A stretch of 44,059 nucleotides of DNA from an uncultured Candidatus Saccharibacteria bacterium. Lineage in GTDB: Bacteria; Patescibacteriota; Doudnabacteria; UBA920. The translations under genes and the position numbers were made by a program. Below the pieces are notes generated by a model. The model made no database searches and was not told the DNA's origin. It saw only the letters and a program-made list of their open reading frames with translations. Shown piece after piece: positions 11,432-43,579 of the stretch. Numbering within the stretch: position 1 is the stretch's first letter; every line of letters starts with the position of its first letter. The stretch is taken from assembly GCA_964650345.1 (NCBI GenBank), contig CAZYSI010000002.1, positions 1 to 44,059 of the forward strand, in the 5' to 3' direction.

Positions 11432-11448
11432 CTTTTCATTTTAAATTT

Positions 11449-11880
11449 ATGATTAAATTACATCAATTAAAAAAGCATCCGAAATCTACTAAGCGTCGTA
11501 AAGTTGTGGGGCGTGGTCTTGGTAGTGGTCATGGTACTTATTCCACTCGGGGTGGAAAAGGCCAAACCGCTCGCACCGGCCATTCTAAAATGCCGGCTCG
11601 ATTTGAAGGTACACAGCCCTTAATCCGCCAATTGCCTAAACTTCGCGGCTTCAAGAGCTTGCACGCTAAAGCAACTGCAATTAAACTTGACGCGCTATCT
11701 GTATTTAAAGATGGTGATGAGGTAACTCTAGCGACTTTGCGTGGTAATGGCTTGTTGCCGACTGGCTCTAAGCGCGTGAAAATTTTGCAAGGCAAATTAT
11801 CTCGCAAATTGACTTTCAAAGTCCCTGTATCTGAAACTGCTAAGGCTACTATTGAAAAAGCTGGCGGCAGTGTGCGATAG
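11449..11880 (+). CDS. rplO: 50S ribosomal protein L15; follows rpsE directly with no L30 gene
   Basis: L..L......KR.K.VGRG.GSG.G.....G.KGQ.AR.G. The gap to rpsE is only 17 nt. Confidence 0.96.
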   Translation: MIKLHQLKKHPKSTKRRKVVGRGLGSGHGTYSTRGGKGQTARTGHSKMPARFEGTQPLIRQLPKLRGFKSLHAKATAIKLDALSVFKDGDEVTLATLRGNGLLPTGSKRVKILQGKLSRKLTFKVPVSETAKATIEKAGGSVR

Positions 11881-20748: not shown

Positions 20749-21687
20749 ATGTTGTTATCTTTTTTGAAGAAAAATTTTTATCTACATGAACTGATAATTA
20801 TCCCAGCTTTTATTGGGAGTGTAGGATTGAGTTGGTATTTTAGTCAAAATTACAATTGGTTGCCTCCATTTGCAGAATGGGTAATGCTAATTGCTTTGAT
20901 GTTTTTTATTGGTTTTGTATGTGTAAAAATTGCAACTGTTGGAATTAAGTTATTTTTTAAGTCTGAGATTGCTCAAAACAAATTTAATTATATAAAAACT
21001 TTCCGATTTATTAGAATTTTTTTTGCTATTTTTGTGTTGTTAATAATATATGAGAATTTACAACTCATTATTCCATCAATCGCTCCAACGCTTCAGGACC
21101 CTGCCTTGTTGTATTATGATGAACTGTTATTTGGTTTTTATCCGACTGATCCGTGGATTATGAACCTTGCCAATGTGTATCTCACAGAAATAATGAACGC
21201 AGTATACCTAACTTTCTATTTCTATATCCCTATTATTGCTCTGTTACTGTATGTTCAAAATTCGATTTCCGAAGCTTTGCGTTTTACGTTAGTAATGGTC
21301 ATTGCATTTCTAATCGCATTTGGACTTTATATATTAGTTCCCGGTATAGGACCCTTGTACTATCTTAAAGGTCAATTTCCTGTTGAATTAGACGGAACAT
21401 TGGTGAATTTAGTGCAGGGTATATTGCAGACCAGTGGAATTCCTCGCAATGTTTTTCCCAGCTTACATGTCGCTGGTAGTGCTATTCCGCTATACTTCTT
21501 TTACAAGAACTCTAAACCGTTGTTTATAGTTTGCTTGCCGGTCATTATTTTGTTGTGGCTATCGACCGTTTATTTGAGGTTGCATTACATTATTGATGTC
21601 TTTGCGGGGTGGTTTTTAGCAATTGTTTGCATAGCGCTTGGAACCTATTTATTTACGAAATGGAATGAAAAAACATTGGTTGATTAG
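20749..21687 (+). CDS. PAP2_C-type (sphingomyelin/IPC-synthase-like) lipid phosphotransferase family membrane protein
   Basis: Polytopic membrane protein with FPSLHVAGS and RLHYIIDVFAGW. These match the SGH / HYxxDVxxG signature of the PAP2 superfamily. Confidence 0.7.
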   Translation: MLLSFLKKNFYLHELIIIPAFIGSVGLSWYFSQNYNWLPPFAEWVMLIALMFFIGFVCVKIATVGIKLFFKSEIAQNKFNYIKTFRFIRIFFAIFVLLIIYENLQLIIPSIAPTLQDPALLYYDELLFGFYPTDPWIMNLANVYLTEIMNAVYLTFYFYIPIIALLLYVQNSISEALRFTLVMVIAFLIAFGLYILVPGIGPLYYLKGQFPVELDGTLVNLVQGILQTSGIPRNVFPSLHVAGSAIPLYFFYKNSKPLFIVCLPVIILLWLSTVYLRLHYIIDVFAGWFLAIVCIALGTYLFTKWNEKTLVD

Positions 21688-23185
21688 TTTGTGTTTAGTG
21701 GTTGCCATAATGGCCACTCTACAAATCCCTAACCGAACTCGGTTAGGGGATCCAGACGGGTTTTATCATGCCAAGGCTTCGCAGCTGCTGGAACAAGGAA
21801 ATTTATCAGATACTTTTCCGTACTTAGCATATACCACGTGGAAAGATGGTTATGCTGACCAACACTACCTTTATCATGCACTGCTGATTCCGTTTAATAA
21901 CGTGGATTCTTTGTTCCTGTCCATAATAATATTCGCTAGTCTAGCAGCCCTTGCCTTTTATTTGCTGTTTTCAGTATTGATGGTGAAAAGCAAGCTCTGG
22001 TGGCTACTAATTTTGATGCTGGGTTCAACTGACTTTTTGTTTCGTATTAATTTGGTTAAAGCCAACACGCTATCTTTAGCTTCGTTAGCAGCAATCATAT
22101 ATTTGCTGTGGAAGTGGCATGAAAAAAACAATTATTGGGTTGCTGCGGCAATTGGCGTTGTTAGTTTTTTGTTTGTATGGATTTACGGTGGGTTTGTGTT
22201 TGTCCCTGTAGTATTAGCTTTATATGTACTTTCAGTACTAATAACAGAGCGAAAATTTGATTACCTACCAGGACTTGCCAGTGCACTCGGCATAGTCATT
22301 GGATTACTCGTACATCCACATAACTCACATTTACTAGTTTTACTTTATGATCAGATTTTCCGGGCTGGGCTTGGTGCTGGAGCAGTTCCTGTGGGTAATG
22401 AATGGCTCCCTTTTAATATAGATTGGTTTTTAACTAGCAACATTCCATTGTTGTTGGTCTGGGTTTTAAGTTTAGCCGCAGTAATGGCTAAGATTTGGCA
22501 CAAACAAATTAGTTGGCTGGAGTTGTGGCTGCAGCTCATTGCTGTAGCTTTGTTGCTGTTAACCTTGCGTCATCGTCGGTTCATTGAATACTTTACGCCG
22601 TTTGCAGTATTATCAGCCAGTGTAGTTCTGACACCGTATTTGGCTAAATTAAATTGGCAACAAATTAAACTGAGCATAAAACAACACTGGCAATTAGGTT
22701 TTTCCGCTGGGTTTGTAGTTTTCCTAGTCGCTTCAGCATTTCTATACAACTTCCAGCACGTGTATGATTACTTGCAGGGTGGGGAAGAGACTCATCGGTT
22801 TGAAGAAGTTGCCCAGCAAATTTATACTCACAGTCAACCAGGTGACATTGTAATTAATACTCAGTGGGATCAGTTTCCGCAATTGTTCTATTGGAATAGT
22901 AAAAGTTATTACCCAATTGGGTTAGACCCGACGTTTATGTACATCTATAATGCAGATTTGTACTGGGATCTGCGCAAGATTGCCGATGATAATGAGAGCG
23001 ACTGGGAGTCTGTTGAATATTTGCATTCAATCGCCAGCAAAACTTTGAAAGGCAAGTTTTTATTCTTAGATGCAAATCGTAATATTAATATTCATAAGTA
23101 CATTCAAGAGCACGATACAGAGCAAAAATACTTCCAATTGATCTATGATTTAGACAACGTGGTAGCTTACCGTATTTTGCCGTAA
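21665..23185 (+). CDS. GT-C fold (ArnT/PMT-like) membrane glycosyltransferase candidate
   Basis: About 12 TM helices. The first extracytoplasmic loop reads GDPDGFYHAKAS (acidic DxD-like motif). There is a large C-terminal soluble domain. I prefer the ATG at 21665 (MKKHWLISL); the track start at 21638 is also possible. The gene overlaps the PAP2 gene. Confidence 0.55.
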   Translation: MKKHWLISLCLVVAIMATLQIPNRTRLGDPDGFYHAKASQLLEQGNLSDTFPYLAYTTWKDGYADQHYLYHALLIPFNNVDSLFLSIIIFASLAALAFYLLFSVLMVKSKLWWLLILMLGSTDFLFRINLVKANTLSLASLAAIIYLLWKWHEKNNYWVAAAIGVVSFLFVWIYGGFVFVPVVLALYVLSVLITERKFDYLPGLASALGIVIGLLVHPHNSHLLVLLYDQIFRAGLGAGAVPVGNEWLPFNIDWFLTSNIPLLLVWVLSLAAVMAKIWHKQISWLELWLQLIAVALLLLTLRHRRFIEYFTPFAVLSASVVLTPYLAKLNWQQIKLSIKQHWQLGFSAGFVVFLVASAFLYNFQHVYDYLQGGEETHRFEEVAQQIYTHSQPGDIVINTQWDQFPQLFYWNSKSYYPIGLDPTFMYIYNADLYWDLRKIADDNESDWESVEYLHSIASKTLKGKFLFLDANRNINIHKYIQEHDTEQKYFQLIYDLDNVVAYRILP

Positions 23186-23188
23186 ATA

Positions 23189-23197
23189 TGGTATAAT
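23189..23197 (+). promoter_or_regulatory. Extended -10 element (TGGTATAAT)
   Basis: tggtataat lies 24 nt upstream of the 23222 ATG. Confidence 0.5.
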
Positions 23198-23221
23198 TAA
23201 TGCGATAATTAAACCCAAAAC

Positions 23222-26200
23222 ATGTTGTTTCGCATAGGCGAGAGAAGTGGTTCTGATTTTGAAACAAAGCTAGATCCGGAGCGAAAACCGAGTGAAAATA
23301 TTAATGAGCTTGAGCAAACTAAAGCTGCTGAGGTTGATTTTGAAATAGGCAAAGAAGCAAAAGGTAAAGAAGGTATTAATGAACGTTTAGAAGAAGAATT
23401 GGGTGTCGTTGCAGAAAAAATTATTTCAAATAACGATGACTTAGAAAATTTAATAGAGAGTAATTTTTCAGACCGGTCACCAGAGGAAAAACAAAAAATT
23501 CTAGAACAACTGCAATCCGCAGCTGGCAAAGAAGAATTTAAGGGTCATGTTAAGGAGTTTTTGACTAAGTCCTTACCAAAAGATTTTACTGTAGGCGCTT
23601 TGGCTGGTTTCGCAGCTCCGCTAATAGCCAAGATAGCAGTTAAAAATTCAGCACGGGCTTTACTTGCTAGTAAAACATTTGGAGTGAGTGTGGCTGCTGG
23701 CGCGATCGCTAACGCTGTTGTTGAACCATTGAGACATTGGATTCGCAATAAAGAAAAAATTGTTGCAAAAGATATTGAATGGCAATTAGCAGCCGCTCAG
23801 TCGTCGGAGCAGCAAGCCGCTATTATCGCTCAGACCCAGAAAAGTTTGGAGGCAGGTCGGTTTCGTAAAGAGGACGAAGCTGGTGTTCGAGCACTATTGC
23901 AAGAACAGCTTGTAAAGGTACATTTAGAAACAAATAAAGAAGGTTTGGAAGGCAAGGATAAGGTTTTACAAATACTGGAAATTTCAAAATCTACCCGACG
24001 TGCTTTGTTTACGAAAGAGGGCAGGGCAGTGCGAAAGCTAATTAATAGCGTTGAGCTGCTTACTGAAAAAAATAAGGTTGGTTATAAGGAGCTAGCTTCA
24101 GCTTCACTTAAAGGCGCTCTTACTGGCGCTGTGGGGGGCGCTGTGGGGGGCGCACTTCATTATTTCCTTGTCGATGCCGGGTACGGCCAAAAAGCCGTCG
24201 ATGTTATCGGGGAGAAATTAAAGGCTGGTTGGTCTGTTTTGCGAAATATGAAAGGCAGTGGTGGCCCTGCGTTGGCATTTATTAACCCAACCTTAGCAAC
24301 TACTCTTTACGGGGAAGTAAGTAACTACGCTCCAGATGTTCCGGAGAAAGAAATTCCCGACGCTGTTAAGCAGGTCATTGCTAACAAAGCTGAGCAGTCT
24401 TTTACAACAGCACCACAAGGATTGTCGGAGATAAAGGACAAACTAGCAGAACAGGCGTTTTATTCTGATTTAGAGCAGGGTAATGGGGGAACGCATTTGG
24501 CTCGAAAAGCATTACATGATTACAGGGTTAATCTAATTAAATCCGGCGATCCTGATGCTGCAAATCTCTCTACTGAACAATTAATCTTCGCAGAAAATTG
24601 GTTTATTAAGCATAAGTTAGATAAATATGTTGAAGAAGGTGCGGATCATGCCTTTAAGCTAGGGGAGGAAGTAAAACCCTTTGATGGCGCAGATTTGAGA
24701 GAGGCAATTGAGGAAGCAAAAAAACTGAATGAGGAACAGCTAAAGAATTTGCACAAATATGTAGACAAGCTTTCTGAAAAAACCATTCACGAAATGCACG
24801 ATTTACAGAATTTTGAAAATGCAGCGAATGACTATACTAAAAACATTCAATCGCCGCAGCCAGATCAAAGTAATGTCGCACCGGGCACTAACCCTGCAAT
24901 AAGTCCAACACCTGAAAACTATGACAATTATCATCCAGACCCGTTAACCGATGAGGAGCGTAAAGCTATAAATGATTCGCAAGATCGTTTTCAAGAAGAT
25001 CAAGCTACTGGTGGTTCTGAGATAGATAAGCAGATTGAACAGTATTATGAGGACAACAAAGACACTGGTCTGAATGAATCAGAAAAAAATATTGAAAGCA
25101 TTAATTCTAAATTAATTGCAATTGCTAAACTAAATCTCATGGGAGGCATCTTGCTTGGTGGGGCTGCAGCAGGGTTTTATATGTTCAAGAAGTGGCAAAA
25201 AGAACGCCCTACTCCTGAGCAAAGTAGAGAGGCGATTGAACAGCTGCTACGCCAAAGAGAACTAGAGGTTGAGCTGGGAGAAGGCGTGACCGATAAAGAC
25301 ATACATAAGCAGTACAATAAATTAATTCGGGCCATAGAACAAGATTACGCTTATGGTGGTTTAGCAAATCTTGCCGGTAAAAAAATTGTATTAGAAAAAG
25401 CGCATAGTGCTAAGGAGCCCTGGGTAGATCATACTGACCCCGAGGTAATTCATTTACCTGTTTCTGTAAAACTTGATAAGTTAGAAAGGTTTATTAATCA
25501 GCTAGATGATGATGCAATCGATCAAGCTAAAGAGTTTTCAGAACGAAAATTATATGAAGCGGGTGATATTATGTTAGATTTGGAGGATGAGTTTCAAATA
25601 AGAATTAGGTTCATTAACAGAGGTCCGAATGGAGTAAGTTCACAACAATTAATTGACAACCTCGATCGATTCAGAAACGCTTTGCGTGACTTACCAGCAG
25701 AGGATTTGCACGGGACGAACTTCGTTCTAACTTATGCCTTAAATGAGCTCGATAAGTCAAGCGGAGATATCTACATAGATGTGGTAAGGCAAACCGATGA
25801 AGAACTATCAAAAGAACTAAGGCAGTTACTTGGGTTAGCCGAAAATATTGAATCTGGAAGTGGTGCTCCAATTTTGGCTGAGCCAGTTTTTGAAGACGAA
25901 CCAGAAGATGTTGATGAGCCTGACTCGTCTGGTATTGTAGAACCAGAAATTAATCCGGTCGAACAAGCTAGACAGGAGATTCAATCTGAATTCAATGAAA
26001 TAGAACGAAAGCATGGTATGAATATAGCTTTGGCTAATGATAAAACCGCAGAATTATTAATGCGCGACCGCAATTTAATGTTTAATTTGCAAGACGGCAT
26101 TGAAGATGCGAGTCGATTCTATCCAGGGATGTTTTATCCTTTCGAAGGTTTTAAAATAGTTCTTGATGATAAATGGGCTTTAGAAAAAGGGGTGCGCCAT

Positions 26201-27895
26201 ATTAACATAAAACAAGGTACACCAAAGCAAATTGCAGATTTTTTAGTTGACCCAGTGAGAGCATTGCGACGTAATAATGAGCCTGCAGCAAGTGGGGTTG
26301 ATAGCATTGAAGTGCGCAATATCGAAGGTAATGAATCAAATCGATTCTTCGAAGAGAATGAAGTTCAGATTCATGGCTCAGCCTATGAATTTAGTCCAGG
26401 TTCTTTTGCTAAACTTGAGGTTAAAGATTTAGTTGACGCAGGCTTAGAACCAAAGCATACAGTTGTTGTAGGAAGTACTGAGTTGAGAGTTTCTCAGCCT
26501 TATAATTTAGACAACGGTCGTCTGGCAGCGATGGTCTATGTGAAGCAAGGCGATGTTTATGTTCCTCGTTCCTATTACAAAAGTAATTCAGCTGTATCTT
26601 GGCGTTATTTGCCTACATATAGTAGAGAGTATGACCCTGAAACAGATCGTTACAATCGTCATTACGATAAAGGCTATGACGAGGATAGTTTAGATGCTAC
26701 TTGGGAAGTGCAAATGGCTTTAACTAAGATCGCAGCAGAACCGAATAATATTATCAATACTCCAAAGGATCCAGAATTCTATATGTTTGGGACATGTTGG
26801 GAGAAAGACAAAGATAATACTTATCAATTTTCGGTTGACGAGTTAGGTGAAACCTATAATGGTCAGTTTAAAGTACCTGAAAGTGATCGGCAGAAGCACG
26901 AAAATGTAGGCGGGTTTTTGGAATTTACTGGTGTGAATAAACTCGAGCCAGAAAAGGTTGGTTTTGCTAATCACGCTTTTAATCCGAACTTTGCTGAAGG
27001 TCCAATAGCGGAATGGCCTGACTATAGCCACATTTATGGTGCGATCACTAATAGGGTTTTTCAGAGTAAAAATAAGCAGCTTACTTATGTGATTCATGAA
27101 AGCGCAGAGGGAAAGGTGTGGATGAACATTCAGACTAATACTGAATTAACTCCAGTTGGTGTGAGGAAGAAGTGGTTTGATGGCGGAGACTTAACCTCAC
27201 CTGCGTATGAATACAAATATCCTAAGATTTCGAATAGTGGTGAATCTTATGTCTACGATCAAACTGGAGGTTATGGTGATGATTCCGATAGAAGAGGTAG
27301 TTATGTTGACATGTTTAAAAACTACAATAGCAAAATTCCTATTATTAAAGAGTATCGGGAATGGAGAAATAATCCACCCGCATCGCCACAGCCAGAGTTA
27401 GTTATTGAACCAGAGCCGGTTAAGCCTAAGCAAGCAGCTTCGTCTCCTCGAGATAGAACCCTGAAGCCAACTCCAGAAAGCCTTCGTAGCTACCCAATAG
27501 GTATTGATTCTGCGCCAGCAACTGAAGCCTGGGATCTCCTTCACTCGGAATCTAAAGAGAATCCATTTCGATCAAATATTGATGATGTTGTTCCACAGCT
27601 TAGCCAACTGGAAAATTGGGTTAATGAGCAAAGAGACTTCAGTGTAATTTACCCTGAATCTCCAATTGTAAAAGCATTTGAAATGCTGAACACGCTATTC
27701 GATTTTTATTCTGATGACGACCGAGCTCGTTCAACTGTTTCCTGGTTACGAGATACTATTAGACAGTTAAACCGCGTAAGTATGAGGCGAGCAGAAGAGC
27801 AAGCCAATGCTAATTTGGGTCGCGATAATTCAGAAGACCCAATTCCTAAAGTAAAGACCAATCGCTTAGAACGAAAACATGGTAAGAAGGAATAG
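23222..27895 (+). CDS. Giant multi-domain membrane protein (1557 aa), function unknown
   Basis: Uninterrupted 4.67-kb ORF. Hydrophobic Gly/Ala-rich segments: FTVGALAGFAAPLIAKIAV, GALTGAVGGAVGGALHYFLV, LMGGILLGGAAAGFYMF. Acidic coiled regions and an aromatic-rich C-terminal region of ~350 aa. No family motif recognised. Confidence 0.8.
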   Translation: MLFRIGERSGSDFETKLDPERKPSENINELEQTKAAEVDFEIGKEAKGKEGINERLEEELGVVAEKIISNNDDLENLIESNFSDRSPEEKQKILEQLQSAAGKEEFKGHVKEFLTKSLPKDFTVGALAGFAAPLIAKIAVKNSARALLASKTFGVSVAAGAIANAVVEPLRHWIRNKEKIVAKDIEWQLAAAQSSEQQAAIIAQTQKSLEAGRFRKEDEAGVRALLQEQLVKVHLETNKEGLEGKDKVLQILEISKSTRRALFTKEGRAVRKLINSVELLTEKNKVGYKELASASLKGALTGAVGGAVGGALHYFLVDAGYGQKAVDVIGEKLKAGWSVLRNMKGSGGPALAFINPTLATTLYGEVSNYAPDVPEKEIPDAVKQVIANKAEQSFTTAPQGLSEIKDKLAEQAFYSDLEQGNGGTHLARKALHDYRVNLIKSGDPDAANLSTEQLIFAENWFIKHKLDKYVEEGADHAFKLGEEVKPFDGADLREAIEEAKKLNEEQLKNLHKYVDKLSEKTIHEMHDLQNFENAANDYTKNIQSPQPDQSNVAPGTNPAISPTPENYDNYHPDPLTDEERKAINDSQDRFQEDQATGGSEIDKQIEQYYEDNKDTGLNESEKNIESINSKLIAIAKLNLMGGILLGGAAAGFYMFKKWQKERPTPEQSREAIEQLLRQRELEVELGEGVTDKDIHKQYNKLIRAIEQDYAYGGLANLAGKKIVLEKAHSAKEPWVDHTDPEVIHLPVSVKLDKLERFINQLDDDAIDQAKEFSERKLYEAGDIMLDLEDEFQIRIRFINRGPNGVSSQQLIDNLDRFRNALRDLPAEDLHGTNFVLTYALNELDKSSGDIYIDVVRQTDEELSKELRQLLGLAENIESGSGAPILAEPVFEDEPEDVDEPDSSGIVEPEINPVEQARQEIQSEFNEIERKHGMNIALANDKTAELLMRDRNLMFNLQDGIEDASRFYPGMFYPFEGFKIVLDDKWALEKGVRHINIKQGTPKQIADFLVDPVRALRRNNEPAASGVDSIEVRNIEGNESNRFFEENEVQIHGSAYEFSPGSFAKLEVKDLVDAGLEPKHTVVVGSTELRVSQPYNLDNGRLAAMVYVKQGDVYVPRSYYKSNSAVSWRYLPTYSREYDPETDRYNRHYDKGYDEDSLDATWEVQMALTKIAAEPNNIINTPKDPEFYMFGTCWEKDKDNTYQFSVDELGETYNGQFKVPESDRQKHENVGGFLEFTGVNKLEPEKVGFANHAFNPNFAEGPIAEWPDYSHIYGAITNRVFQSKNKQLTYVIHESAEGKVWMNIQTNTELTPVGVRKKWFDGGDLTSPAYEYKYPKISNSGESYVYDQTGGYGDDSDRRGSYVDMFKNYNSKIPIIKEYREWRNNPPASPQPELVIEPEPVKPKQAASSPRDRTLKPTPESLRSYPIGIDSAPATEAWDLLHSESKENPFRSNIDDVVPQLSQLENWVNEQRDFSVIYPESPIVKAFEMLNTLFDFYSDDDRARSTVSWLRDTIRQLNRVSMRRAEEQANANLGRDNSEDPIPKVKTNRLERKHGKKE

Positions 27896-27896
27896 G

Positions 27897-28211
27897 TTAA
27901 CGGCGATAGGAATCGTGGATAATTTTTAGTTCCTGTTCTATTGCTTCATCAATAGTTTTTAGTAGGCCAGGAACTTGAGAAGTGATATAAGAAATTTTTT
28001 CTTCTTTTTGTGGAGAGGGTAACTTTAGAGCGTCTTGATAATCTTCAGCTTGTTGTTCAGTTAATTGGGAAATCGTTACTTCAGTAATTAGGTTATCAAA
28101 GTGGCTGACAAGGGCTTTCACTGTTTCTGCTTTATCTTCATTAGATACGTTAATATCTAGAGCCGCTAAAAGCTCACGAGGGTTAATGTGTAGATTATTA
28201 ATCAAACTCAT
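27897..28211 (-). CDS. Hypothetical small acidic helical protein (104 aa)
   Basis: Convergent with the giant gene; the two stops are separated by 1 nt. A TGATATACT extended -10 lies 6 nt before its ATG. Confidence 0.55.
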   Translation of the reverse strand: MSLINNLHINPRELLAALDINVSNEDKAETVKALVSHFDNLITEVTISQLTEQQAEDYQDALKLPSPQKEEKISYITSQVPGLLKTIDEAIEQELKIIHDSYRR

Positions 28212-28217
28212 ATTTAA

Positions 28218-28226
28218 AGTATATCA
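28218..28226 (-). promoter_or_regulatory. Extended -10 (TGATATACT on minus strand), leaderless-type
   Basis: The minus strand reads ttGATATACTttaaatATG. The hexamer ends 6 nt before the start codon at 28211. Confidence 0.45.
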
Positions 28227-28241
28227 AAAGTTGTACTAAAC

Positions 28242-28272
28242 AAAAAAGCCCATATCAACAAATATGACATGG
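28242..28272 (-). terminator. Rho-independent terminator for the 28362-29396 gene
   Basis: Minus strand: CCATGTC-atatttgtt-GATATGG (7 bp including one G-U pair) followed by GCTTTTTTG. Confidence 0.65.
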
Positions 28273-28361
28273 AGACTTTTCGTTTAATTGTCTAATTCTT
28301 TTGCTATTTACTTTCCACCACTGTTTTACAGGGGCCAATTCCAATAGCATCTGAATTAAAT

Positions 28362-29396
28362 TCAGGTTATGGGTCCGCTCGGGGTCGGTGAGGTATTCGA
28401 ATTGCTCGAATTACTGTTCGTCGATCCGGACGGAGCCGCGGTATTGGAATTGCTGTTGCTGTTCTGCTGCTGCGAACTGGGATCAGGAGTCGGGCTAGGC
28501 GACGGCGTTGCCGCAGGAGCCTGGTTCGAACCTGGGTTTGTGTTCGCTGCAGGAGCAGTGGAATTGTCGGTGCCCTTGATCGTGACGGTAACGGCGACTT
28601 CGCACTTCGAGCCGCAATCTTTTGCAGCGTCGATCGTGGTGAACTTGATCGTAGCAGTGACATCCTGCGCATTCTTTTTCCCATTAAGCTTGGCAGTCAT
28701 GCGATTGGCAAGATCTGGGAAGGAGAGAAGCGCGTTCTGGGAATCGCTGGTGGCCTTGAGACGGGCAAGTATTGCATTACCGTCCTTGTCCTTGGCCTTA
28801 ATGACGATATTAGTTTCCACTGCAGTGTCGAGTTCGATGTTTGTGCTATCGGCCTCGAGACTGGCAACTTCCACCTTCTTCACTGTTACCTTGATGGCCT
28901 TGCGGAGCGCCGGGAATTCCTCGGACCCGATATAGAACGATCGAGTGCCGGGAAAGATCGAGTTAATGGTCAGCTTGTTGGTCTGCGCGTCGATCGAAGC
29001 GGTCGCAGTCTGCGACTTGCTGTAATCGGCGAGAAGCTTAGCGGTGAGCGAACTGTTATCGGCCTTTTTCAGGACGGACAGCTCTATCTCCAGCTGCTGA
29101 CCAGGGGTGGTTTCATATTCGTACTTGTCATCAGCGATGACAAACTTCGCCTCGGCCGTGTCGACTACCTCAGGCTTAGGAGCCGGGGGATTGTGTCGAC
29201 GAGCTGCTGCGGCTGTCTTCTTGACGCCGTTGCCATTGGCCTTTTTGGCGTGCTTCTTCTTGGCCTTCTTGGCCGAGTAGTTGTAAGCGGTCCGCGACGG
29301 GTTTATCGTCTGAGCCGACACCGAAAGGTGGCTTGCACACACGATGATACCGACGAAAAGTAACGAAATTATCGAAAGAATAGACAATCTTTTCAT
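28362..29396 (-). CDS. Secreted beta-rich (Ig-like repeat) protein with basic N-region and Ser/Asn/Pro-rich C-terminal tail
   Basis: Signal peptide MKRLSILSIISLLFVGIIVCASHLSVSAQ, then a Lys-rich stretch, two ~90-aa beta-strand-pattern modules, and the tail QQQNSNSNSNTAAPSGSTNSNSSNSNTSPTPSG. AGAGGAA lies before the ATG. G+C is markedly higher here: hand counts of two 60-nt lines gave 55% and 63%. Confidence 0.75.
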   Translation of the reverse strand: MKRLSILSIISLLFVGIIVCASHLSVSAQTINPSRTAYNYSAKKAKKKHAKKANGNGVKKTAAAARRHNPPAPKPEVVDTAEAKFVIADDKYEYETTPGQQLEIELSVLKKADNSSLTAKLLADYSKSQTATASIDAQTNKLTINSIFPGTRSFYIGSEEFPALRKAIKVTVKKVEVASLEADSTNIELDTAVETNIVIKAKDKDGNAILARLKATSDSQNALLSFPDLANRMTAKLNGKKNAQDVTATIKFTTIDAAKDCGSKCEVAVTVTIKGTDNSTAPAANTNPGSNQAPAATPSPSPTPDPSSQQQNSNSNSNTAAPSGSTNSNSSNSNTSPTPSGPIT

Positions 29397-29573
29397 GGTT
29401 TTCCTCTATTTGACTTAGAAATGTGCGGGTAGTCTGTATAGCGCTGGAACGCTGACCTTTTATCCCTTAAAGCTCCAGTTTCCGACAATTTTCTAGGATT
29501 TACTAGAAATTAGCTGAAACCAAAGCTCTAATGTAGTTTTATTTAATACAGTGCATATTTTAGCACATTTAGC

Positions 29574-29602
29574 TTGACTTGTCAAGTCTTTTGTGTTATA
29601 TT
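29574..29602 (+). promoter_or_regulatory. Sigma70-like promoter with palindrome over the -35
   Basis: TTGACT (29574-29579), 17 nt, TATATT (29597-29602). The palindrome CTTGAC-TT-GTCAAG (29573-29586) overlaps the -35. Confidence 0.6.
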
Positions 29603-29693: not shown

Positions 29694-31769
29694 ATGAATA
29701 GTAACATCTTTTTAGCGCTTTTAGGTGTCTTTAACGTTTTAAGCCTTCTTATGCGACGGCGAGCGAAAAGCAAGCTGTCGCAGCGGGAGATCGACGCGTT
29801 GCTGACCAAATTTCCGCACCGGTCGGTAGACCAGTTGTTGTCGGCCGTTTATTCTTCACCAGTCGCTTTGGTTCGGTCACTGATCGACCATGCCGTTAAA
29901 TACAACGACGATTACACTGATGGTGATCGTGAGGCGGCAGTAGAGGTATTGTCCAAATTGTTCGTTAGTGTCGACTGGCAACCAAGAGTTTCTGGTTTGA
30001 CCGTAAAACGAATTTGGTCAGCAACCAAACAGCTAACCGAGTTGTCGGGAGCTGGCATTATCCTTGCTTTTGTCGTTTCGCTCATCGCTAATATTCTCGG
30101 GTATCTGTATTTTGAGAATTGGTGGATGTCCACCGTGGCGGTGACAGTTGGATACTTTGCTTTGGCTTCGTTTGTAGTTAGCGGTGTTCGCTACCTTTGG
30201 TCGCAGATGCCGTTGACTTCGCGTCTTGTAAAGGCGGGTCTAGTAATCGGCTTCCTTCTGTTTAGTTGGATGCCAATGATCATTTCTTATTTCTACCAAC
30301 CGGCAAGCGCGGTGGTTAATAAGGAACCTGGTATTATTGAGCAGGGAGCGATCGAGAAGCAGCTGGCGAAGATCTATGATCGTCCGCCAGTTCCTACTCG
30401 AGGAGTCCCAGCTTGGACTGCGATGGATATTAAGGTTGGCGCTAAGCGTCGATCTGAACTCAGCGCAGAACAGAAGACCTTGCGTGAATTATTGTTGGTA
30501 GACCAACTAACCTTTTCTTCTCTTAACACGACAGAAAAGGTAACTGGTTTCCAGCGTATGAAGAACTACACCACGCTCGTTTCGGCCTCCGTCGCCAATC
30601 TCTTAGTGCGCGATCCACAGGCTGGTAAGGACTTTGCTGAGCAAACAGGTTTACAACCCGAAAACCTGGCTGACTACTTCCTGGCAATTTTAGGGAAGGA
30701 GTCATCTTGGTCAAACGATTGTGAATCGGGGACCGGTCCGGTATGTCCCGCAGGTATTTCTATTGCCTTGGGGGAAGACGAGGGTTTGGTGAAGGGAAAT
30801 CAGGATCTTCGAAAGGTTCCGGAACATGCTATACCGATGATGGTTGAGTATGCTTATGGTAATTACCAAAAGCTTAATCGTCGTTGGGATCTGGCTGCTC
30901 TGGGTTATCATACTGGGCGTAGTCGCGCCTTAGGTTTGGTAAAGATTGCCCAAGAAGAGAATTTGCAATGGAAGACCTACATGGATATCTACTTTGCAGA
31001 TCCTGATAAATATCCACAAACCTGGGCTAAGGTCCAGGAAATCCATTCCAAGGACTTCGGTGATACCTACTGGCCTGGCATCATTCGCTATATGGAGCTT
31101 ATTTCTGTGTTTCGCACAGATGAAGAAGCTTTCCAAGAAATTGCGAAAGCGCAGCTCAGGAGGGTTGATGGTCGAAACATTGCCCCTAAGTACAAGTTCC
31201 ATACATTCTTTGACGAGAGCCTGTTGAATTTCGAGGGCATCGGTATGTTGAAGGACTTGAACGACTTGAAAGCTGCGGCTGCTAAAGGTTTGCTTGTAAC
31301 TGCACCGAACCATAACTCGATTAATTACCGCACAGCGGATGATCGAGGGATTGGTGCGAACGACAAGGCAAACGGTCTCGAGTACAAACGGTTAAGGCCT
31401 TTGGGTATTGGCGGTTTGTGGGCTGTGGGAACCTTGGTTGGTCGGCTTGATTCGCAGCAACGTCTGGACCTAACTTCCATGATTCGCACGGATGAGTACC
31501 AGAAAAAAGCGAATACTCGTGAGGATGTGGCTGTCCCAACTCATTTGTCGGGGTTGGTATTCGACATCTCGATGAAGGATATGAAGGATGACGATCCTGA
31601 ATACATCCGCATTGCATTCGCTCTCAATGAACTTGAGAATTACGGATGTGTAAGCTGGATGCCGGAAGGGAAAGCGTATCGAGCTTTCCATGTCGTCATT
31701 AATCCTTATCAGAAACAGTGCGTGGAGATGTTTATGAACAACTACCATGTTAGTGGTGCGGTCGGCTAA
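29694..31769 (+). CDS. Membrane-anchored putative cell-wall hydrolase: lytic-transglycosylase-like plus M15 (VanY-like) peptidase-like motifs
   Basis: GGAGG lies 11 nt before the ATG. The N-terminal ~200 aa contain several TM helices. LAILGKESSW (Glu codon 30699-30701) and AALGYHTG resemble SLT motifs I and III. SMIRTDEYQ, PTHLSGLVFD (31542-31565) and AYRAFHVV resemble the SxxR...Q / HxxGxxxD / xxH pattern of M15 peptidases. Confidence 0.6.
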   Translation: MNSNIFLALLGVFNVLSLLMRRRAKSKLSQREIDALLTKFPHRSVDQLLSAVYSSPVALVRSLIDHAVKYNDDYTDGDREAAVEVLSKLFVSVDWQPRVSGLTVKRIWSATKQLTELSGAGIILAFVVSLIANILGYLYFENWWMSTVAVTVGYFALASFVVSGVRYLWSQMPLTSRLVKAGLVIGFLLFSWMPMIISYFYQPASAVVNKEPGIIEQGAIEKQLAKIYDRPPVPTRGVPAWTAMDIKVGAKRRSELSAEQKTLRELLLVDQLTFSSLNTTEKVTGFQRMKNYTTLVSASVANLLVRDPQAGKDFAEQTGLQPENLADYFLAILGKESSWSNDCESGTGPVCPAGISIALGEDEGLVKGNQDLRKVPEHAIPMMVEYAYGNYQKLNRRWDLAALGYHTGRSRALGLVKIAQEENLQWKTYMDIYFADPDKYPQTWAKVQEIHSKDFGDTYWPGIIRYMELISVFRTDEEAFQEIAKAQLRRVDGRNIAPKYKFHTFFDESLLNFEGIGMLKDLNDLKAAAAKGLLVTAPNHNSINYRTADDRGIGANDKANGLEYKRLRPLGIGGLWAVGTLVGRLDSQQRLDLTSMIRTDEYQKKANTREDVAVPTHLSGLVFDISMKDMKDDDPEYIRIAFALNELENYGCVSWMPEGKAYRAFHVVINPYQKQCVEMFMNNYHVSGAVG

Positions 31770-31968: not shown

Positions 31969-32574
31969 ATGGATAAAACTGCTAATTTAGCGTTGGTTAT
32001 GCAGATGATCGATGCTGCGGAAAAGAATATTCAATCTGCCAAACAATTACTACGCGAAAGTGGGGGTATTGCGCCTGCACGTAGTAGCGCTTCTGCTGTA
32101 TTTGAAAAAGCTCAAAGCCTGTCTTCTTCTGAAGGGGGTAAGGTTATTGAAGGCGTATTCGACGGTCAAAATATGATCGGACCAGAAGGTAAACAATATC
32201 CAGTACCGGCTAATTATGCATCAAAAAGTAAGCTCGTCGAAGGTGATATGCTTAAACTCACTATTGCTGACGATGGTTCGTTCATTTACAAACAAATCGC
32301 TCCAGTAGAACGTCGCAAAGTTATGGGCACTCTGATGCAAGATGAGAAAGGCGATTACAAGGTTATTGCCGAGGGTAAATCTTTTAAAGTACTACTGGCA
32401 TCGTTAACTTACTTTAAAGCCGATGCAGGCGATGAGGTGACTATTGTCTTGCCACAAGATACTGACAGTGAATGGGCCGCAGTTGAACATGTTATTAAGC
32501 ACAACTCTTCGAACATTGATGCCGAAGCTGGGGGTATGGATATAGACGCCGAAGCTGGGGGAGAAGAATTCTAA
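31969..32574 (+). CDS. Hypothetical protein (201 aa) with C-terminal tandem IDAEAGG repeat
   Basis: ORF with 27-nt-period repeat units at 32518-32534 and 32545-32561. Its stop overlaps the next start (TAATG). Confidence 0.6.
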   Translation: MDKTANLALVMQMIDAAEKNIQSAKQLLRESGGIAPARSSASAVFEKAQSLSSSEGGKVIEGVFDGQNMIGPEGKQYPVPANYASKSKLVEGDMLKLTIADDGSFIYKQIAPVERRKVMGTLMQDEKGDYKVIAEGKSFKVLLASLTYFKADAGDEVTIVLPQDTDSEWAAVEHVIKHNSSNIDAEAGGMDIDAEAGGEEF

Positions 32575-39771: not shown

Positions 39772-40428
39772 ATGATAATCCCAGCCATATTAGAAAAAAC
39801 TTCGCATGGATTTGCGGAAAAAATAGCATTACTTGCTTCCCTGAAAAGTAAAGTAAAAACAATTCAGGTAGATTTTGCTGATGGTCTTTTTGTGCCCAAC
39901 GAAACCATGGGTATTCACGATTTTGCTGAAATTGGGGATTTATCAAAGAAATACACTTGGGAAGCGCATCTTATGGTTATTAAGCCGCAAAACTTTGCTG
40001 ACTATAAAACTGCTGGGTTTAATACAATAATTGTTCATTACGAATCTTTTGATAGCGAACAACAACTAGAAGATGCTCTAGAGGCAATAGCAAGACTTGG
40101 TCTTAAGCCAGTCATTGCTATTAACCCCCATACATCAGTGTCAGTGCTTCGCTATTTTACAGATACTATTAATCAATTTACGATTCTTTCAGTTGAGCCA
40201 GGAAGGCAAGGAAATCCATTTTTACGCGAAAGCATTGAACGAGTGAAAATGTTGAGAGAAATGGCCCCAAATGCTACAATTGAGGTAGATGGTGGGATAA
40301 ATGTCAGCAATGCATCAGCCCTCCTAAACGCAGGCGCAGACTACCTTGCCGTAGGTAGCGCGCTGTTTGAAACAGAACACGTAAAACAAAACTTCGAACA
40401 AATTGAATCTGCAGGAACTACAATATAA
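39772..40428 (+). CDS. rpe: Ribulose-phosphate 3-epimerase
   Basis: IIPAIL, VDFADGLFVPNETMG, HLMV, VEPGRQGNPF, VDGGIN. Confidence 0.9.
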   Translation: MIIPAILEKTSHGFAEKIALLASLKSKVKTIQVDFADGLFVPNETMGIHDFAEIGDLSKKYTWEAHLMVIKPQNFADYKTAGFNTIIVHYESFDSEQQLEDALEAIARLGLKPVIAINPHTSVSVLRYFTDTINQFTILSVEPGRQGNPFLRESIERVKMLREMAPNATIEVDGGINVSNASALLNAGADYLAVGSALFETEHVKQNFEQIESAGTTI

Positions 40429-41245
40429 GGCTAATGATATCCGTCAGGACATAGTTAGCATGCTTGTCGAGGCCGGCTCTGGTCACAGTGCCGGACCTTT
40501 AGGATTAGCAGACATTTTTACGGCCCTGTATTTTAAAGTGATGAAACACGATCCAACTCACCCGGAGTGGAATGGGCGTGATCGTTTGGTGTTGTCGTGC
40601 GGGCATACTTGCCCGGTGTTGTACGCATCTTTAGCAGAAGCTGGATATTTTCCAGTTGAAGAGCTGAAGACTTTGCGCAAGTTCGGTACTCGCTTGCATG
40701 GTCACCCACACAATTTGGCGTTGCCAGGAATTGAAACCAGTAGTGGTCCTTTAGGACAAGGAAGCAGTCAGGCTGTAGGTATGGCATTGGCGTTTCGTAT
40801 GGACGGCCTCCGTAATCGTGTTTACCTGATTATGTCAGATGGCGAACAAAATGAAGGACAAATTTGGGAAGCGGTTATGCTAGCTGGTAAAGAGAAACTT
40901 CACAACCTCACTGCAATAATTGATCGTAACAATATTCAAATTGACGGTTTCACTGAAGACGTTATGCCATTAGAAAATTTGCGCGAAAAGTACGAAGCCT
41001 TTAACTGGCATGTCTTAGAGGTTGATGGGCATAACATAGATGCGATTATTAATGCCTATAAAGAAGCAGAAGCGATTTACGAAAAACCTACTGTTATTAT
41101 TGCGCATACTATTCCCGGCAAAGGTGTAGATTTTATGGAAGGCCGGTATGAGTGGCATGGCAAGCCACCATCAAAAGAAGAAGCTAAAGTTGCGCTACAA
41201 GAATTGCGCACACTTGGTGGAAAAATTAAAAGTGAGCATGAGTAA
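40403..41245 (+). CDS. tkt: Transketolase, N-terminal (thiamine-diphosphate-binding) subunit
   Basis: AGSGHSAGPLG, RDRLVLSCGH, HGHP, GPLGQG, SDGEQNEGQ.WEA, IDRN. Overlaps the rpe 3' end by 26 nt. Confidence 0.93.
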   Translation: MNLQELQYKANDIRQDIVSMLVEAGSGHSAGPLGLADIFTALYFKVMKHDPTHPEWNGRDRLVLSCGHTCPVLYASLAEAGYFPVEELKTLRKFGTRLHGHPHNLALPGIETSSGPLGQGSSQAVGMALAFRMDGLRNRVYLIMSDGEQNEGQIWEAVMLAGKEKLHNLTAIIDRNNIQIDGFTEDVMPLENLREKYEAFNWHVLEVDGHNIDAIINAYKEAEAIYEKPTVIIAHTIPGKGVDFMEGRYEWHGKPPSKEEAKVALQELRTLGGKIKSEHE

Positions 41246-41259
41246 TTAACATCGAATAT

Positions 41260-42558
41260 ATGTCTGAATTAGAACTAAAACCAAATATAGAGAAAACCTC
41301 GCTGTCGAATTTGCAAGAGCAGCTAGATGCCTTAAAGTCTCAGCATGATCAGGAGAAGGGCCGAGAGAATGAGCGATACAAAGATCTGGTGCAAATGGCT
41401 GTAGAAATGGCTGGTGGGAACGTAAAATTGGCTCAAGCTACGGATCGCTCCTATCTTACATTTCCAAGTCTACCTGATGCGCATCGAAAATCCCTTTATG
41501 AATTTGAGATAAATCGCAAGCAGGAAATTGAGGATCGAACTTTAGATCTAAAGGCTAAGACGGAAAAGTTGGAGTCTGTAAAAAGTAATTTCCAGAGTTT
41601 GCAGGAGGCCGGAGCGCTTACTGAGGAGCAGTTACATCAATTCGAAGCTCAGATCCAGGAGGAAGAAGCAATTTTGGCTGGGGAGTCGGAAGCCATTAAA
41701 ACTTTGGGTAGCACTTTGAAAGATGATTATAATGATTTAGCTGAAAAGTTTCGAAAAATTGAAACCAAGCAAGACAACATAGCTGCTAATCCAGGTGAAT
41801 TTGCGATTGAAACGGTTTTGGAAATGAATAAAGACGATATGACAGAAGAACAGATTGCATCATTTAAAGCCGATGTAGAGCAGGTTTTAAAAGAGCAGCA
41901 AAACGAAGCTTGGGCAACGAAGCAGTTGGAAGAGAAAATGGAATTTCTTAAATTCGAAGAAGGTGTGGTCGAAGAGTTCGCCCAGCGCCTTTCTGCAATT
42001 AAAGCAAAGATTGAGGCGCATATGCCTGCTTTTGCGACTATTTCTCCGGACGTAAAAGTGCAGCTGGCGCCAGAGCTTAAAAGCCGGTTACAAGAACATC
42101 AAAAACAAATTGAGAAATTGCTTGGCAGTCTCTATATGACTAGCGGTAAAGCTAAAGATACAGAACAGCTTATAAGAGAGTTGAGGGCAATGTATGATCT
42201 TTATCGGGACCAATATTATGAAATTCATAACACTCTCATTAACTTTTTAAACGATGCTTCACATCAAGACCAAAATAAAGACGGCCAAGTTATGGGATTA
42301 GGGAGGGTAACATTAAGAGAAATTGGTGAAAGTGATAACAGTCTAACCTGGGTTAAACAGCCTAATTTACAAAATAAAGTTAGTGAGCTGAATGATCAAG
42401 CCAGAATTGTTCAAATGCGGGCAAAGGTATTGTCTAAGGAAATTAATTCCTATTGCAAAAAAACTCAAGAAGCAATGGAGGAATTTCGTAAGCAATTAGA
42501 AGGGTTGTGTGACTCTAAAATTAGAGAATACGCAGCTAAGTTAAACCAGCGCAGATAA
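41260..42558 (+). CDS. Hypothetical coiled-coil protein (432 aa) inserted between the two transketolase subunit genes
   Basis: Glu/Lys/Gln-rich helical sequence, no TM helix, no recognised motif. Same strand, with 14-nt and 28-nt gaps to its neighbours. Confidence 0.65.
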   Translation: MSELELKPNIEKTSLSNLQEQLDALKSQHDQEKGRENERYKDLVQMAVEMAGGNVKLAQATDRSYLTFPSLPDAHRKSLYEFEINRKQEIEDRTLDLKAKTEKLESVKSNFQSLQEAGALTEEQLHQFEAQIQEEEAILAGESEAIKTLGSTLKDDYNDLAEKFRKIETKQDNIAANPGEFAIETVLEMNKDDMTEEQIASFKADVEQVLKEQQNEAWATKQLEEKMEFLKFEEGVVEEFAQRLSAIKAKIEAHMPAFATISPDVKVQLAPELKSRLQEHQKQIEKLLGSLYMTSGKAKDTEQLIRELRAMYDLYRDQYYEIHNTLINFLNDASHQDQNKDGQVMGLGRVTLREIGESDNSLTWVKQPNLQNKVSELNDQARIVQMRAKVLSKEINSYCKKTQEAMEEFRKQLEGLCDSKIREYAAKLNQRR

Positions 42559-42586
42559 TTAACTTACTAATGTAAGTAGAAAATAA

Positions 42587-43579
42587 ATGCTAAACCCTCA
42601 AGCAAAACTTAATCCAAAGATCGGGCAAGCCGACATTGAAGCAGTCCCCAGCAGAAATGGTTTTGGGGAAGCGCTTTTGCAATTGGGCGAGCATCATAAG
42701 GAAGTAGTGGCTTTAACAGGCGATTTAGCAGAAAGTACCCGTGTTCTAGAGTTTGCGCAGAAGTACCCAGATCGTTTTGTTGAGTGTGGTGTGGCCGAAC
42801 AAAATATGATGGGCGTTGCAGCTGGAATGGCTTTGGCAGGTAAAACCCCTTTTGTATGCAGCTACGCTACTTTTAGTCCTGGACGAGCGTGGGATCAATT
42901 GCGTGTTTCTGTGGCGTACAGCAAGGCGAATGTAAAGGTTGCTGGTCACCACACTGGTCTTTCCGTAGGACCAGATGGCGCCACTCATCAAGCTTTAGAA
43001 GATATTGCTATTGTTCGTACATTACCTAACATGACAGTCTTAGTGCCGTGTGATTCAGTAGAAGCTCGTAAAACCACTCTCGCGCTTGGTGGTACAGCAG
43101 GGCCAGCCTACTTCCGACTAGGTCGGGAAAAAACTCCTGTAATTACCACTGAGGAAACTCCTTTTACAGTGGGTAAGGCGCAGGTACTAAAAGAAGGCAC
43201 AGATGTCGCTGTAATTGGCTGTGGTCCAATTCTCTACAGCGGTCTTCTCGCAGCGATGGAACTCGAAAAAGAAAATATTAATGTCTTAGTTATAAACAAC
43301 CATACAATCAAACCGATGGATACCGAAACAATTGTTTGGGCAGCAAAAATGACAGGCGCTGTAGTAACAATCGAAGAGCATCAGATTATGGGTGGTGCAG
43401 GCTCAGCCGTGGTTGAAGTATTAGCTCAAAGGCAACCAGTACCAGTAGAAATGGTTGGTATGCCAGACAGTTTTGGTGAAAGTGGCGACCCAGAGCAACT
43501 TCTTAGAAAATTTGGCATGGATAAGGACGCAATAAAAGCAGCTATTAAAAAAGTTCTAACTAGAAAGCAGAATCAATGA
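42587..43579 (+). CDS. tkt: Transketolase, C-terminal (pyrimidine-binding) subunit
   Basis: R..FGEAL..LG, FVECGVAEQNMMGVAAG.A, GPDGATHQALEDIAI.R.LPNM.V..P.D. Confidence 0.93.
   Translation: MLNPQAKLNPKIGQADIEAVPSRNGFGEALLQLGEHHKEVVALTGDLAESTRVLEFAQKYPDRFVECGVAEQNMMGVAAGMALAGKTPFVCSYATFSPGRAWDQLRVSVAYSKANVKVAGHHTGLSVGPDGATHQALEDIAIVRTLPNMTVLVPCDSVEARKTTLALGGTAGPAYFRLGREKTPVITTEETPFTVGKAQVLKEGTDVAVIGCGPILYSGLLAAMELEKENINVLVINNHTIKPMDTETIVWAAKMTGAVVTIEEHQIMGGAGSAVVEVLAQRQPVPVEMVGMPDSFGESGDPEQLLRKFGMDKDAIKAAIKKVLTRKQNQ

Follow-up and report, generated by a model that had tools for sequence, protein, structure and literature searches.

The stretch of DNA analysed here (the window, 44,059 nucleotides of contig CAZYSI010000002.1 in assembly GCA_964650345.1, from an uncultured Candidatus Saccharibacteria bacterium) carries at positions 29694-31769 a gene for a 691-residue protein, hereafter the hydrolase, in which we find an N-terminal membrane region, a lytic transglycosylase (SLT) module and a C-terminal domain of the DUF5715 family. 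The hydrolase is a new, very divergent member of a catalogued, uncharacterised family and does not represent a new kind of system. Its most likely role, to which we give a probability of about 0.55, would be remodelling of the cell's own wall. A preliminary description of this DNA had proposed a membrane-anchored protein that combines SLT-like and M15 peptidase-like motifs. We found the open reading frame (ORF) exactly as described, and all six of the motifs quoted there are present in the order given (GKESSW at residue 334, AGISIAL at 353, AALGYHTG at 401, SMIRTDEYQ at 595, PTHLSGLVFD at 615 and AYRAFHVV at 661). The two groups of motifs are indeed separated, by about 260 residues and not by the ~280 proposed. 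The features of the gene are as follows.

29694-31769, + strand: complete ORF with an ATG start, 691 residues, predicted two-domain (SLT and DUF5715) peptidoglycan hydrolase
29694-30296, + strand: N-terminal membrane region, residues 1-201, four hydrophobic helices
30342-31250, + strand: lytic transglycosylase module, residues about 217-519, made up of a helical N-extension, the SLT core and a conserved helical C-lobe
30645-30932, + strand: SLT core, Pfam match to PF01464 at residues 318-413
30699-30704, + strand: Glu336-Ser337, the E-S motif of family-1 lytic transglycosylases, placed by column alignment
30906-30917, + strand: Tyr405-His406-Thr407-Gly408, the AYNxG equivalent (family consensus AYHxG)
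31251-31766, + strand: C-terminal DUF5715 domain, residues 520-691 (about 170 residues), with a probable fold of the LAS (Hedgehog/DD-peptidase) type
31476-31502, + strand: S595-M-I-R598-T-D-E-Y-Q603, the SxxR...Q motif (R in 53 of 59 relatives, Q in 49 of 59)
31542-31565, + strand: HLSGLVFD, His617-x6-Asp624, putative first and second zinc ligands (H in 59 of 59, D in 58 of 59)
31665-31691, + strand: Glu658, candidate general base (53 of 59), to His666, putative third zinc ligand (57 of 59)

Antisense ORFs within the gene (for example 30930-31313, - strand) were given no weight, because the + frame has homology support throughout.

Exhaustive search retrieves a divergent family with both domains

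An exhaustive HMMER search of 1.84 billion cluster representatives (E≤1e-3) retrieved 61 relatives of the hydrolase, 19 of them at ≤1e-10; most are 450-800 residues long and are aligned across query residues about 370-685. Two long repetitive proteins whose matches fall in the hydrophobic or linker part of the query, P0011 (1739 residues, with 25 matched stretches) and P0054 (2224 residues), were treated as spurious and left out of the resulting alignment (A1), which holds 59 sequences at 20-38% identity to the query. The family is visible only with exhaustive HMMER searching, because word-indexed homologue searches with the protein and with A1 returned only the hydrolase itself and two MltD-like SLT proteins. 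A search of NCBIfam with the hydrolase gave no match, phmmer of the single sequence against the PDB gave nothing meaningful, and locus searches with alignment A3 in genome contigs, and with P0001 and A3 in metagenome contigs, found no orthologues.

Most of the relatives share domains with the hydrolase. The A1 consensus begins ESxGxxxAxSPTGPxGxxQ...DxRxxP...AxxxYHxGxG, continues through a helical stretch and ends TSLVRxxxYQ...NxxA...PxHxxGxAFDI...L...G...E...HVVxxP. Pfam recognises SLT in 47 of the 59 full-length relatives (best 1.5e-21) and DUF5715 in 38. One of them, P0036, is WP_320669291.1, a 'DUF5715 family protein' of Patulibacter defluvii, and some relatives are lipoproteins. In the hidden Markov model (HMM) checks that the preliminary description had suggested, profile support is thus seen for both domains.

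We also asked how specific the motifs are by themselves. We found a composite M15-type pattern (S..R[ST]...Q, H..G.[AV].D and a distal H) a single time in the window translated in all six frames, and in none of 20,000 shuffles of the hydrolase protein. A loose SLT pattern, seen at three places in the window and in 316 of the 20,000 shuffles (1.6%), is non-specific; the SLT assignment therefore rests on the HMM, profile and fold evidence given below.

A four-helix anchor is predicted to place both domains outside the cell

The expectation of about 200 residues of transmembrane helices at the N-terminus is borne out by hydropathy analysis, which finds four hydrophobic segments there (residues 1-21, 113-141, 144-166 and 178-201). 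Positive charges follow the first helix (RRRAKSK) and are found again in the loop between the third and fourth helices. By the positive-inside rule, the helical segment of about 95 residues between the first two helices (residues 22-112) would be cytoplasmic, and everything after residue 201, hence both domains (about 490 residues), would lie outside the cell, a placement that follows from these two groups of charges. An AlphaFold2 model of the hydrolase, built with A1, has a mean predicted local distance difference test (pLDDT) score of 84; the score is mostly >90 over residues 220-680, with no 10-residue block below about 78.

The middle domain is a family-1 lytic transglycosylase domain

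Pfam, family-profile and Foldseek evidence all back the SLT-like domain of the preliminary description. Pfam matches PF01464 in the whole hydrolase at E=3.2e-4, and the score rises to 23.2 bits when the soluble fragment is searched. Much stronger matches are obtained when the A1 profile is compared with the PDB, with E-values from 1e-20 to 1e-8 overall: the best are the N-terminal domain of T7 gp16 (1.2e-20), Escherichia coli MltC (1e-12) and Slt70 (9e-12), Pseudomonas aeruginosa MltF (2e-11), E. coli EmtA (4e-10) and P. aeruginosa MltD (6.5e-10). In these profile alignments, the ES column of the family falls on the catalytic Glu-Ser of T7 gp16 and Slt70. The PHROGs matches are weak; one is an 'internal virion protein with endolysin domain' and another a transglycosylase.

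The fold points the same way. All of the top 50 PDB matches of the hydrolase model in Foldseek are lytic transglycosylases or g-type lysozymes, among them MltD, Slt70, MltE, MltF and g-type lysozyme, at probabilities of 0.72-1.00 (most ~1.0); the length and multi-domain make-up of the query keep the E-values at 1e-3 or weaker.

Two of the three SLT motifs named earlier stand, while the third does not. The Glu-Ser pair is present and is nearly invariant among ungapped relatives (E in 48 of 48, S in 46 of 49), and the counterpart of AYNAG lies in the AYHxG column, in which Y, H and G are found in 45, 49 and 46 relatives, respectively. The supposed GLMQ element is AGISIAL, which lacks the Gln, and the loop that replaces GLMQ is flanked by a pair of cysteines, Cys343 and Cys351 (window 30720-30746), shared only with the nearest relative, P0002. 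This pair may form a disulfide in the exported domain. The middle domain is thus truly that of a family-1 lytic transglycosylase, although the loop of its substrate groove is altered, and lytic transglycosylase activity of the module is likely.

The C-terminal domain belongs to DUF5715 and resembles M15 peptidases

In the hydrolase, the Pfam match to DUF5715 (PF18979) covers residues 588-633; its E-value is 0.03 when the full protein is searched and 0.004 with the fragment. There is no significant match to VanY, Peptidase_M15, M15_2, M15_3 or M15_4. When the C-terminal domains of relatives are scanned in isolation, DUF5715 is found in 30 of 35 (best about 4e-20). We aligned the C-terminal domains of the family with the window sequence first (A2), and the A2 profile matched 321 proteins (best about 1e-38), nearly all annotated PF18979 and most of them stand-alone proteins of 200-310 residues. 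From these profile matches, we firmly assign the predicted domain to the DUF5715 family.

Four independent kinds of signal, each of them weak, agree in pointing to the LAS and M15 proteins, and we therefore read DUF5715 as a relative of these. First, secondary Pfam matches among the isolated C-terminal domains are to VanY (six, best 0.004), M15_4 (two) and M15_3 (one, 1.1e-4). Second, 10 of the 11 PDB matches of the A2 profile at E<1 are LAS/M15 proteins, including VanY-like 4mph and 4jid, the L-Ala-D-Glu endopeptidase 8q2g, an M15C protein, Desert hedgehog and LdcB/DacB; the alignments pass through SxxRxxxQ and HxxGxxxD, such that S595, R598 and Q603 fall on 'SGFRSYDYQ' of 4mph. Third, the sole PDB match of the domain model (pLDDT 92.9) over its whole length is the Sonic hedgehog N-domain (ShhN), and in a Foldseek search of BFVD the model matches phage proteins with probability 1.0 and E from 6.6e-4; among the names of these are Murein endopeptidase K, Peptidase M15B, a D-Ala-D-Ala carboxypeptidase and a cell-wall hydrolase. 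Fourth, three DUF5715 matches of the A2 profile bear the Joint Genome Institute (JGI) name 'YcbK (DUF882)', a name of the MepK/M15_3 family. M15/LAS and Hedgehog proteins are the only coherent class among the weak PDB, Pfam and Foldseek matches.

The VanY/M15-like pattern of the preliminary description is thus upheld in its residues, both the His/Asp/His set and SxxR...Q, while membership in M15/VanY is not: the domain is a DUF5715 domain, related to M15, in which the E/D-x-x-H base is missing. A conserved Glu, E658, is found 8 residues before H666, a spacing nearer to that of Hedgehog (Shh E177/H183). We conclude that the C-terminal domain is most probably a LAS-group zinc-peptidase-like domain, related to M15 yet forming its own family.

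Proposed mechanism and the evidence against it

If the protein acts on the wall of the cell that makes it, its parts could work together as follows. The four N-terminal helices would anchor the hydrolase in the membrane, leaving about 95 residues in the cytoplasm, and the remaining ~490 residues would face the cell wall. There, the SLT/GH23 module would use Glu336 to cleave the bond between N-acetylmuramic acid (MurNAc) and N-acetylglucosamine (GlcNAc). In the DUF5715 domain, His617, Asp624 and His666 would bind Zn2+, with Arg598 and Glu658 assisting hydrolysis of a stem-peptide or cross-link amide. The membrane tether would confine both activities to the wall beside the producer's own membrane, and the result would be local opening and turnover of its own sacculus as the cell grows, divides or inserts structures into its envelope. 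The ORF, the domain homology, the conserved catalytic-type residues, the fold matches and the synteny are shown by the analysis, and the topology, the binding of zinc, the activity of the enzyme, its bond specificity and its role in the cell are predictions. We favour remodelling of the cell's own wall because of the tether, the housekeeping synteny of the gene and the FtsZ neighbourhood of one relative (see below).

Several observations count against this interpretation. The scores of the hydrolase itself are below the Pfam cut-offs for both domains, 20.7 bits against 21.3 for PF01464 and 17 bits against 26.8 for DUF5715. The motif-II Gln, kept in 43 relatives, is Gly354 in the hydrolase, a change shared only with P0002 ('CPAGIS'). 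At position -3 from the last His, where the base of the canonical M15 E/D-x-x-H would be, the hydrolase has R663, in a variable column. The whole-domain match of the C-terminal model to ShhN in the PDB has a template modelling score of 0.46-0.56 and a non-significant E of 0.1-0.3. When the C-terminal profile was aligned by hhalign with single sequences of ShhN, T5 endolysin and VanX (approximate sequences), the probabilities were 1-3%; these alignments, anchored on HxxGxAxD, were used for residue mapping only, and that with ShhN places H617, D624 and H666 on Shh H141, D148 and H183 at low probability. We found no mention of DUF5715 or PF18979 in the literature searched. Finally, the evidence fits action on the cell's own wall and action on a host wall alike.

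Comparison with known hydrolases

At the family level, the hydrolase and its relatives share with the family-1 lytic transglycosylases (Slt70, MltC, EmtA, MltD, MltF and T7 gp16) the Glu-Ser pair, the SPTGPxGxxQ region, the DxR-xP helix and AYxxG, and the lysozyme-like fold is common to both. The hydrolase differs from them in that it has Gly354 in place of the motif-II Gln and a Cys pair there, in its polytopic anchor at the N-terminus, in contrast to the lipobox or signal peptide of the known enzymes, and in its C-terminal zinc-peptidase-like domain, which is not found in the known enzymes named.

The DUF5715 proteins have a homologous C-terminal domain that shows the invariant residues of the hydrolase (R, H-x6-D, E and H), and P0036 and most of the 59 relatives carry SLT in front of DUF5715, as the hydrolase does. 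Most other DUF5715 proteins stand alone, whereas the hydrolase has the four-helix anchor and is very divergent. With the M15/LAS peptidases (VanY, VanX, LdcB, MepK and the phage T5-type endopeptidase) and the Hedgehog N-domain, the C-terminal domain shares SxxR...Q, HxxGxAxD, the distal His and, probably, an alpha/beta sandwich fold. The acidic residue lies 3 positions before the last His in VanX/VanY (E-x-x-H) and in M15C (D-x-x-H), but 8 upstream of it, as E658, in the hydrolase.

In overall plan, the hydrolase resembles PrgK of pCF10, TraG of pIP501 and the VirB1 homologues found in the Candidate Phyla Radiation (CPR), which likewise join an N-terminal anchor to SLT and to a second peptidase domain (PMC12102498), and local opening of the wall would be a logic common to the hydrolase and the VirB1-like proteins. 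The second domain is CHAP or M23 in the PrgK/TraG type, and M23 or LysM accompanies SLT in the CPR VirB1 homologues, whereas the hydrolase has DUF5715/LAS. Genes of the PrgK/TraG type lie inside type IV secretion system (T4SS) operons, while that of the hydrolase lies in a conserved housekeeping neighbourhood. Fusions of glycosidase and peptidase domains are common and include autolysins, T4SS hydrolases (PrgK and TraG) and phage virion lysins. In a 2019 review of the domains of cell-wall hydrolases, the catalytic partners given for M15 are amidase domains only (PMC6403190). The BFVD fold matches of the C-terminal domain include a phage 'LT_GEWL domain containing protein'. A paper on a 'bifunctional hydrolase' of the Acinetobacter baumannii type VI secretion system was considered as a precedent for SLT with M15 and set aside; 'M15' appears in it only in lacZ-delta-M15 genotypes.

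The gene lies in a conserved housekeeping region

The window is chromosomal: it encodes EF-Tu, SecY and the ribosomal proteins of the S10/spc operon and, further along, DnaX, RuvX, GalT, TIM, RpiB, Rpe and a transketolase in two parts. The identity of its SecY is 75-88% to the SecY of metagenome-assembled genomes (MAGs) titled Saccharibacteria or Doudnabacteria and about 50% to that of other Patescibacteria, and S5 is followed after 17 nucleotides by L15 with no L30 between (window 10925-11880), an absence of L30 that has been reported for CPR bacteria. On the strength of the SecY identities and the missing L30, the source organism is assigned to the ultrasmall CPR/Patescibacteria. Many GTDB MAG records with ~50% SecY identity and a Microgenomates-type grouping are titled 'uncultured Gammaproteobacteria', such that record titles are unreliable at class level. 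Searches of the window for tRNAs and Rfam families gave no matches. The promoters and neighbours of the hydrolase gene, together with one more distant gene, are the following.

29574-29602, + strand: sigma-70-like promoter, TTGACT-17-TATATT, TG-extended, about 92 nucleotides upstream of the ATG of the hydrolase (consensus match only)
29585-29557, - strand: divergent sigma-70-like promoter for the gene of the 344-residue protein (consensus match only)
23222-27895, + strand: 1557-residue protein, upstream neighbour, syntenic, two hydrophobic segments
27897-28211, - strand: 104-residue protein, upstream neighbour, syntenic
28362-29396, - strand: 344-residue secreted protein, upstream neighbour, syntenic, with a low-complexity Ser/Asn/Pro tail
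31969-32574, + strand: 201-residue protein, directly downstream of the hydrolase
13791-16346, + strand: 851-residue P-loop ATPase with an N-terminal hydrophobic segment, weak family matches

The conserved upstream block (21638-29396) begins with a 515-residue polytopic membrane protein. Pfam, NCBIfam and PDB searches assigned no family to the neighbours of 515, 1557, 104, 344 and 201 residues. The order of genes in the window (the 515-residue polytopic protein, a protein of 1284-1557 residues, one of ~100 residues, a secreted one of ~350 residues and the hydrolase, followed by the 201-residue protein, GtrA, DnaX, a ~530-residue protein, RuvX, GalT, TIM and RpiB) recurs on the contigs of relatives P0004 (L086) and P0012 (L088), and its first part only on that of P0003 (L001), in which the giant protein is split into three ORFs. 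The homologue in relative P0005 (L004) lies two genes downstream of FtsZ, and a homologue of the 515-residue protein is nearby there too. Judged by this gene order, the hydrolase is a positional orthologue in a vertically inherited housekeeping region. It also evolves fast, since it is only 25-31% identical across the syntenic loci, compared to 74-77% for the adjacent 201-residue protein (L086 and L088). The 201-residue protein is itself conserved far beyond its neighbours. We ruled out a phage or plasmid origin of the hydrolase, because tblastn against phage and plasmid collections gave no matches and the context is chromosomal and housekeeping.

The two divergent promoters have their -35 elements overlapping inside the palindrome TTGACTTGTCAA (window 29557-29602), and the shared promoter region hints at possible co-regulation of the hydrolase and the gene for the 344-residue secreted protein. 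The sequence GGAGGA stands 11 nucleotides before the ATG of the hydrolase.

Two departures elsewhere in the window deserve mention. The 851-residue ATPase directly follows SecY, a place usually taken by adk, map and infA, and two ORFs (460 and 436 residues) with no family assignment come after it. The transketolase is encoded in two pieces (window 40403-43579), the N-terminal one at 40403-41245 and the C-terminal one at 42587-43579, and between them lies a 432-residue ORF with no family assignment (41260-42558).

Alternative functions

CPR bacteria live attached to host cells, and the hydrolase may be a weapon or entry tool, in which both hydrolytic domains, together with the giant and secreted neighbours, would digest host peptidoglycan at the contact site. 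We consider this unlikely, and the same holds for the purposes it would serve, nutrient access or envelope fusion. The organism does belong to the Patescibacteria by its SecY and missing L30, the hydrolase is linked to the 1284-1557-residue protein and the secreted protein in three related contigs, and in a Saccharibacterium, hydrolases near virB4 are reported to be required for growth as an epibiont (PMC12102498). The hydrolase evolves faster than its neighbours, as proteins at a host interface should, but this may equally mean relaxed constraint. Moreover, the four-helix anchor would hold the domains near the producer's own wall, no release or cleavage signal is seen in the protein, and relatives occur in free-living lineages (e.g. 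Patulibacter) and as lipoproteins, so the family is not specific to symbionts. A bolder version, in which the hydrolase and the proteins of 1300-1550, ~100 and ~350 (secreted) residues would form one conserved module that breaches host peptidoglycan where epibiont and host touch, and DUF5715 would be an unrecognised class of zinc peptidases with a Hedgehog-like catalytic layout that serves parasitism between bacteria, appears to us decidedly improbable.

If the hydrolase were instead a VirB1-like protein, the other role raised in the preliminary description besides attack on a host, it would open the wall for a T4SS or pilus, by analogy with PrgK and TraG (pIP501). The architecture offers a parallel, since anchor, SLT and a second peptidase domain are combined in the VirB1 proteins of monoderms (PMC12102498), and the 851-residue protein (13791-16346), which lies ~13 kb and 9 genes upstream of the hydrolase, is a divergent ATPase of the VirD4/TraD/HerA-like kind. 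However, the matches of this ATPase to TrwB/VirD4/TraD, DUF87/HerA and CedB/CedD are all weak and far below cut-offs, we recognised no further T4SS component in the window, and in L086 and L088 the 10 kb upstream of the hydrolase contain no recorded T4SS-type ATPase. The neighbourhood, with DnaX, RuvX and TIM, is a housekeeping one in which no T4SS gene is adjacent, and a survey found VirB1 homologues to be poorly associated with virB4 in most CPR classes (PMC12102498), which also argues against this role. We regard it as very doubtful.

The least probable of these alternatives, in our judgement, is a protein that is partly or wholly non-catalytic, with one or both domains turned to peptidoglycan binding or regulation as a scaffold for other enzymes. 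There are precedents for catalytic folds that have become non-catalytic in the Hedgehog N-domain and in the pseudoenzymes among the LytM factors, and Hedgehog is not known to be a peptidase. The loss of the GLMQ Gln and gain of the Cys343/Cys351 pair in the substrate-groove loop, the absence of the canonical E/D-x-x-H, the Hedgehog domain as the best solved-structure match of the C-terminal domain and the scores under the Pfam cut-offs would all suit such a protein. Against it, the Glu-Ser pair is kept, as are H617, D624, H666, R598 and E658, which are ≥90% conserved at a family identity of 20-38%. That the catalytic-type residues are kept despite such divergence argues for selection on the active site, and their retention without exception makes a pseudoenzyme unlikely.

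Implications

Databases already contain the combination of SLT and DUF5715, for example as 'DUF5715 family protein', and a specialist would hardly be surprised by it, because the domain types are known and glycosidase-peptidase fusions are common. The peculiarities of the hydrolase are modest: its predicted four-helix anchor includes a cytoplasmic segment, the Gln of motif II is lost, and the putative catalytic Glu is placed much as in Hedgehog.

CPR/Patescibacteria have very small genomes, and how they build, remodel and breach walls is little understood. The hydrolase is a concrete candidate for a part in these processes, with predicted glycan- and peptide-cleaving modules in one polypeptide and a conserved position in a core region of the chromosome. 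The analysis also provides a functional hypothesis for DUF5715, a family with hundreds of members, as a probable LAS-group relative of M15 for which fusion to SLT is frequent. Should the enzyme prove active, its specificity could reveal the type of cross-link in the walls of these organisms or of their hosts.

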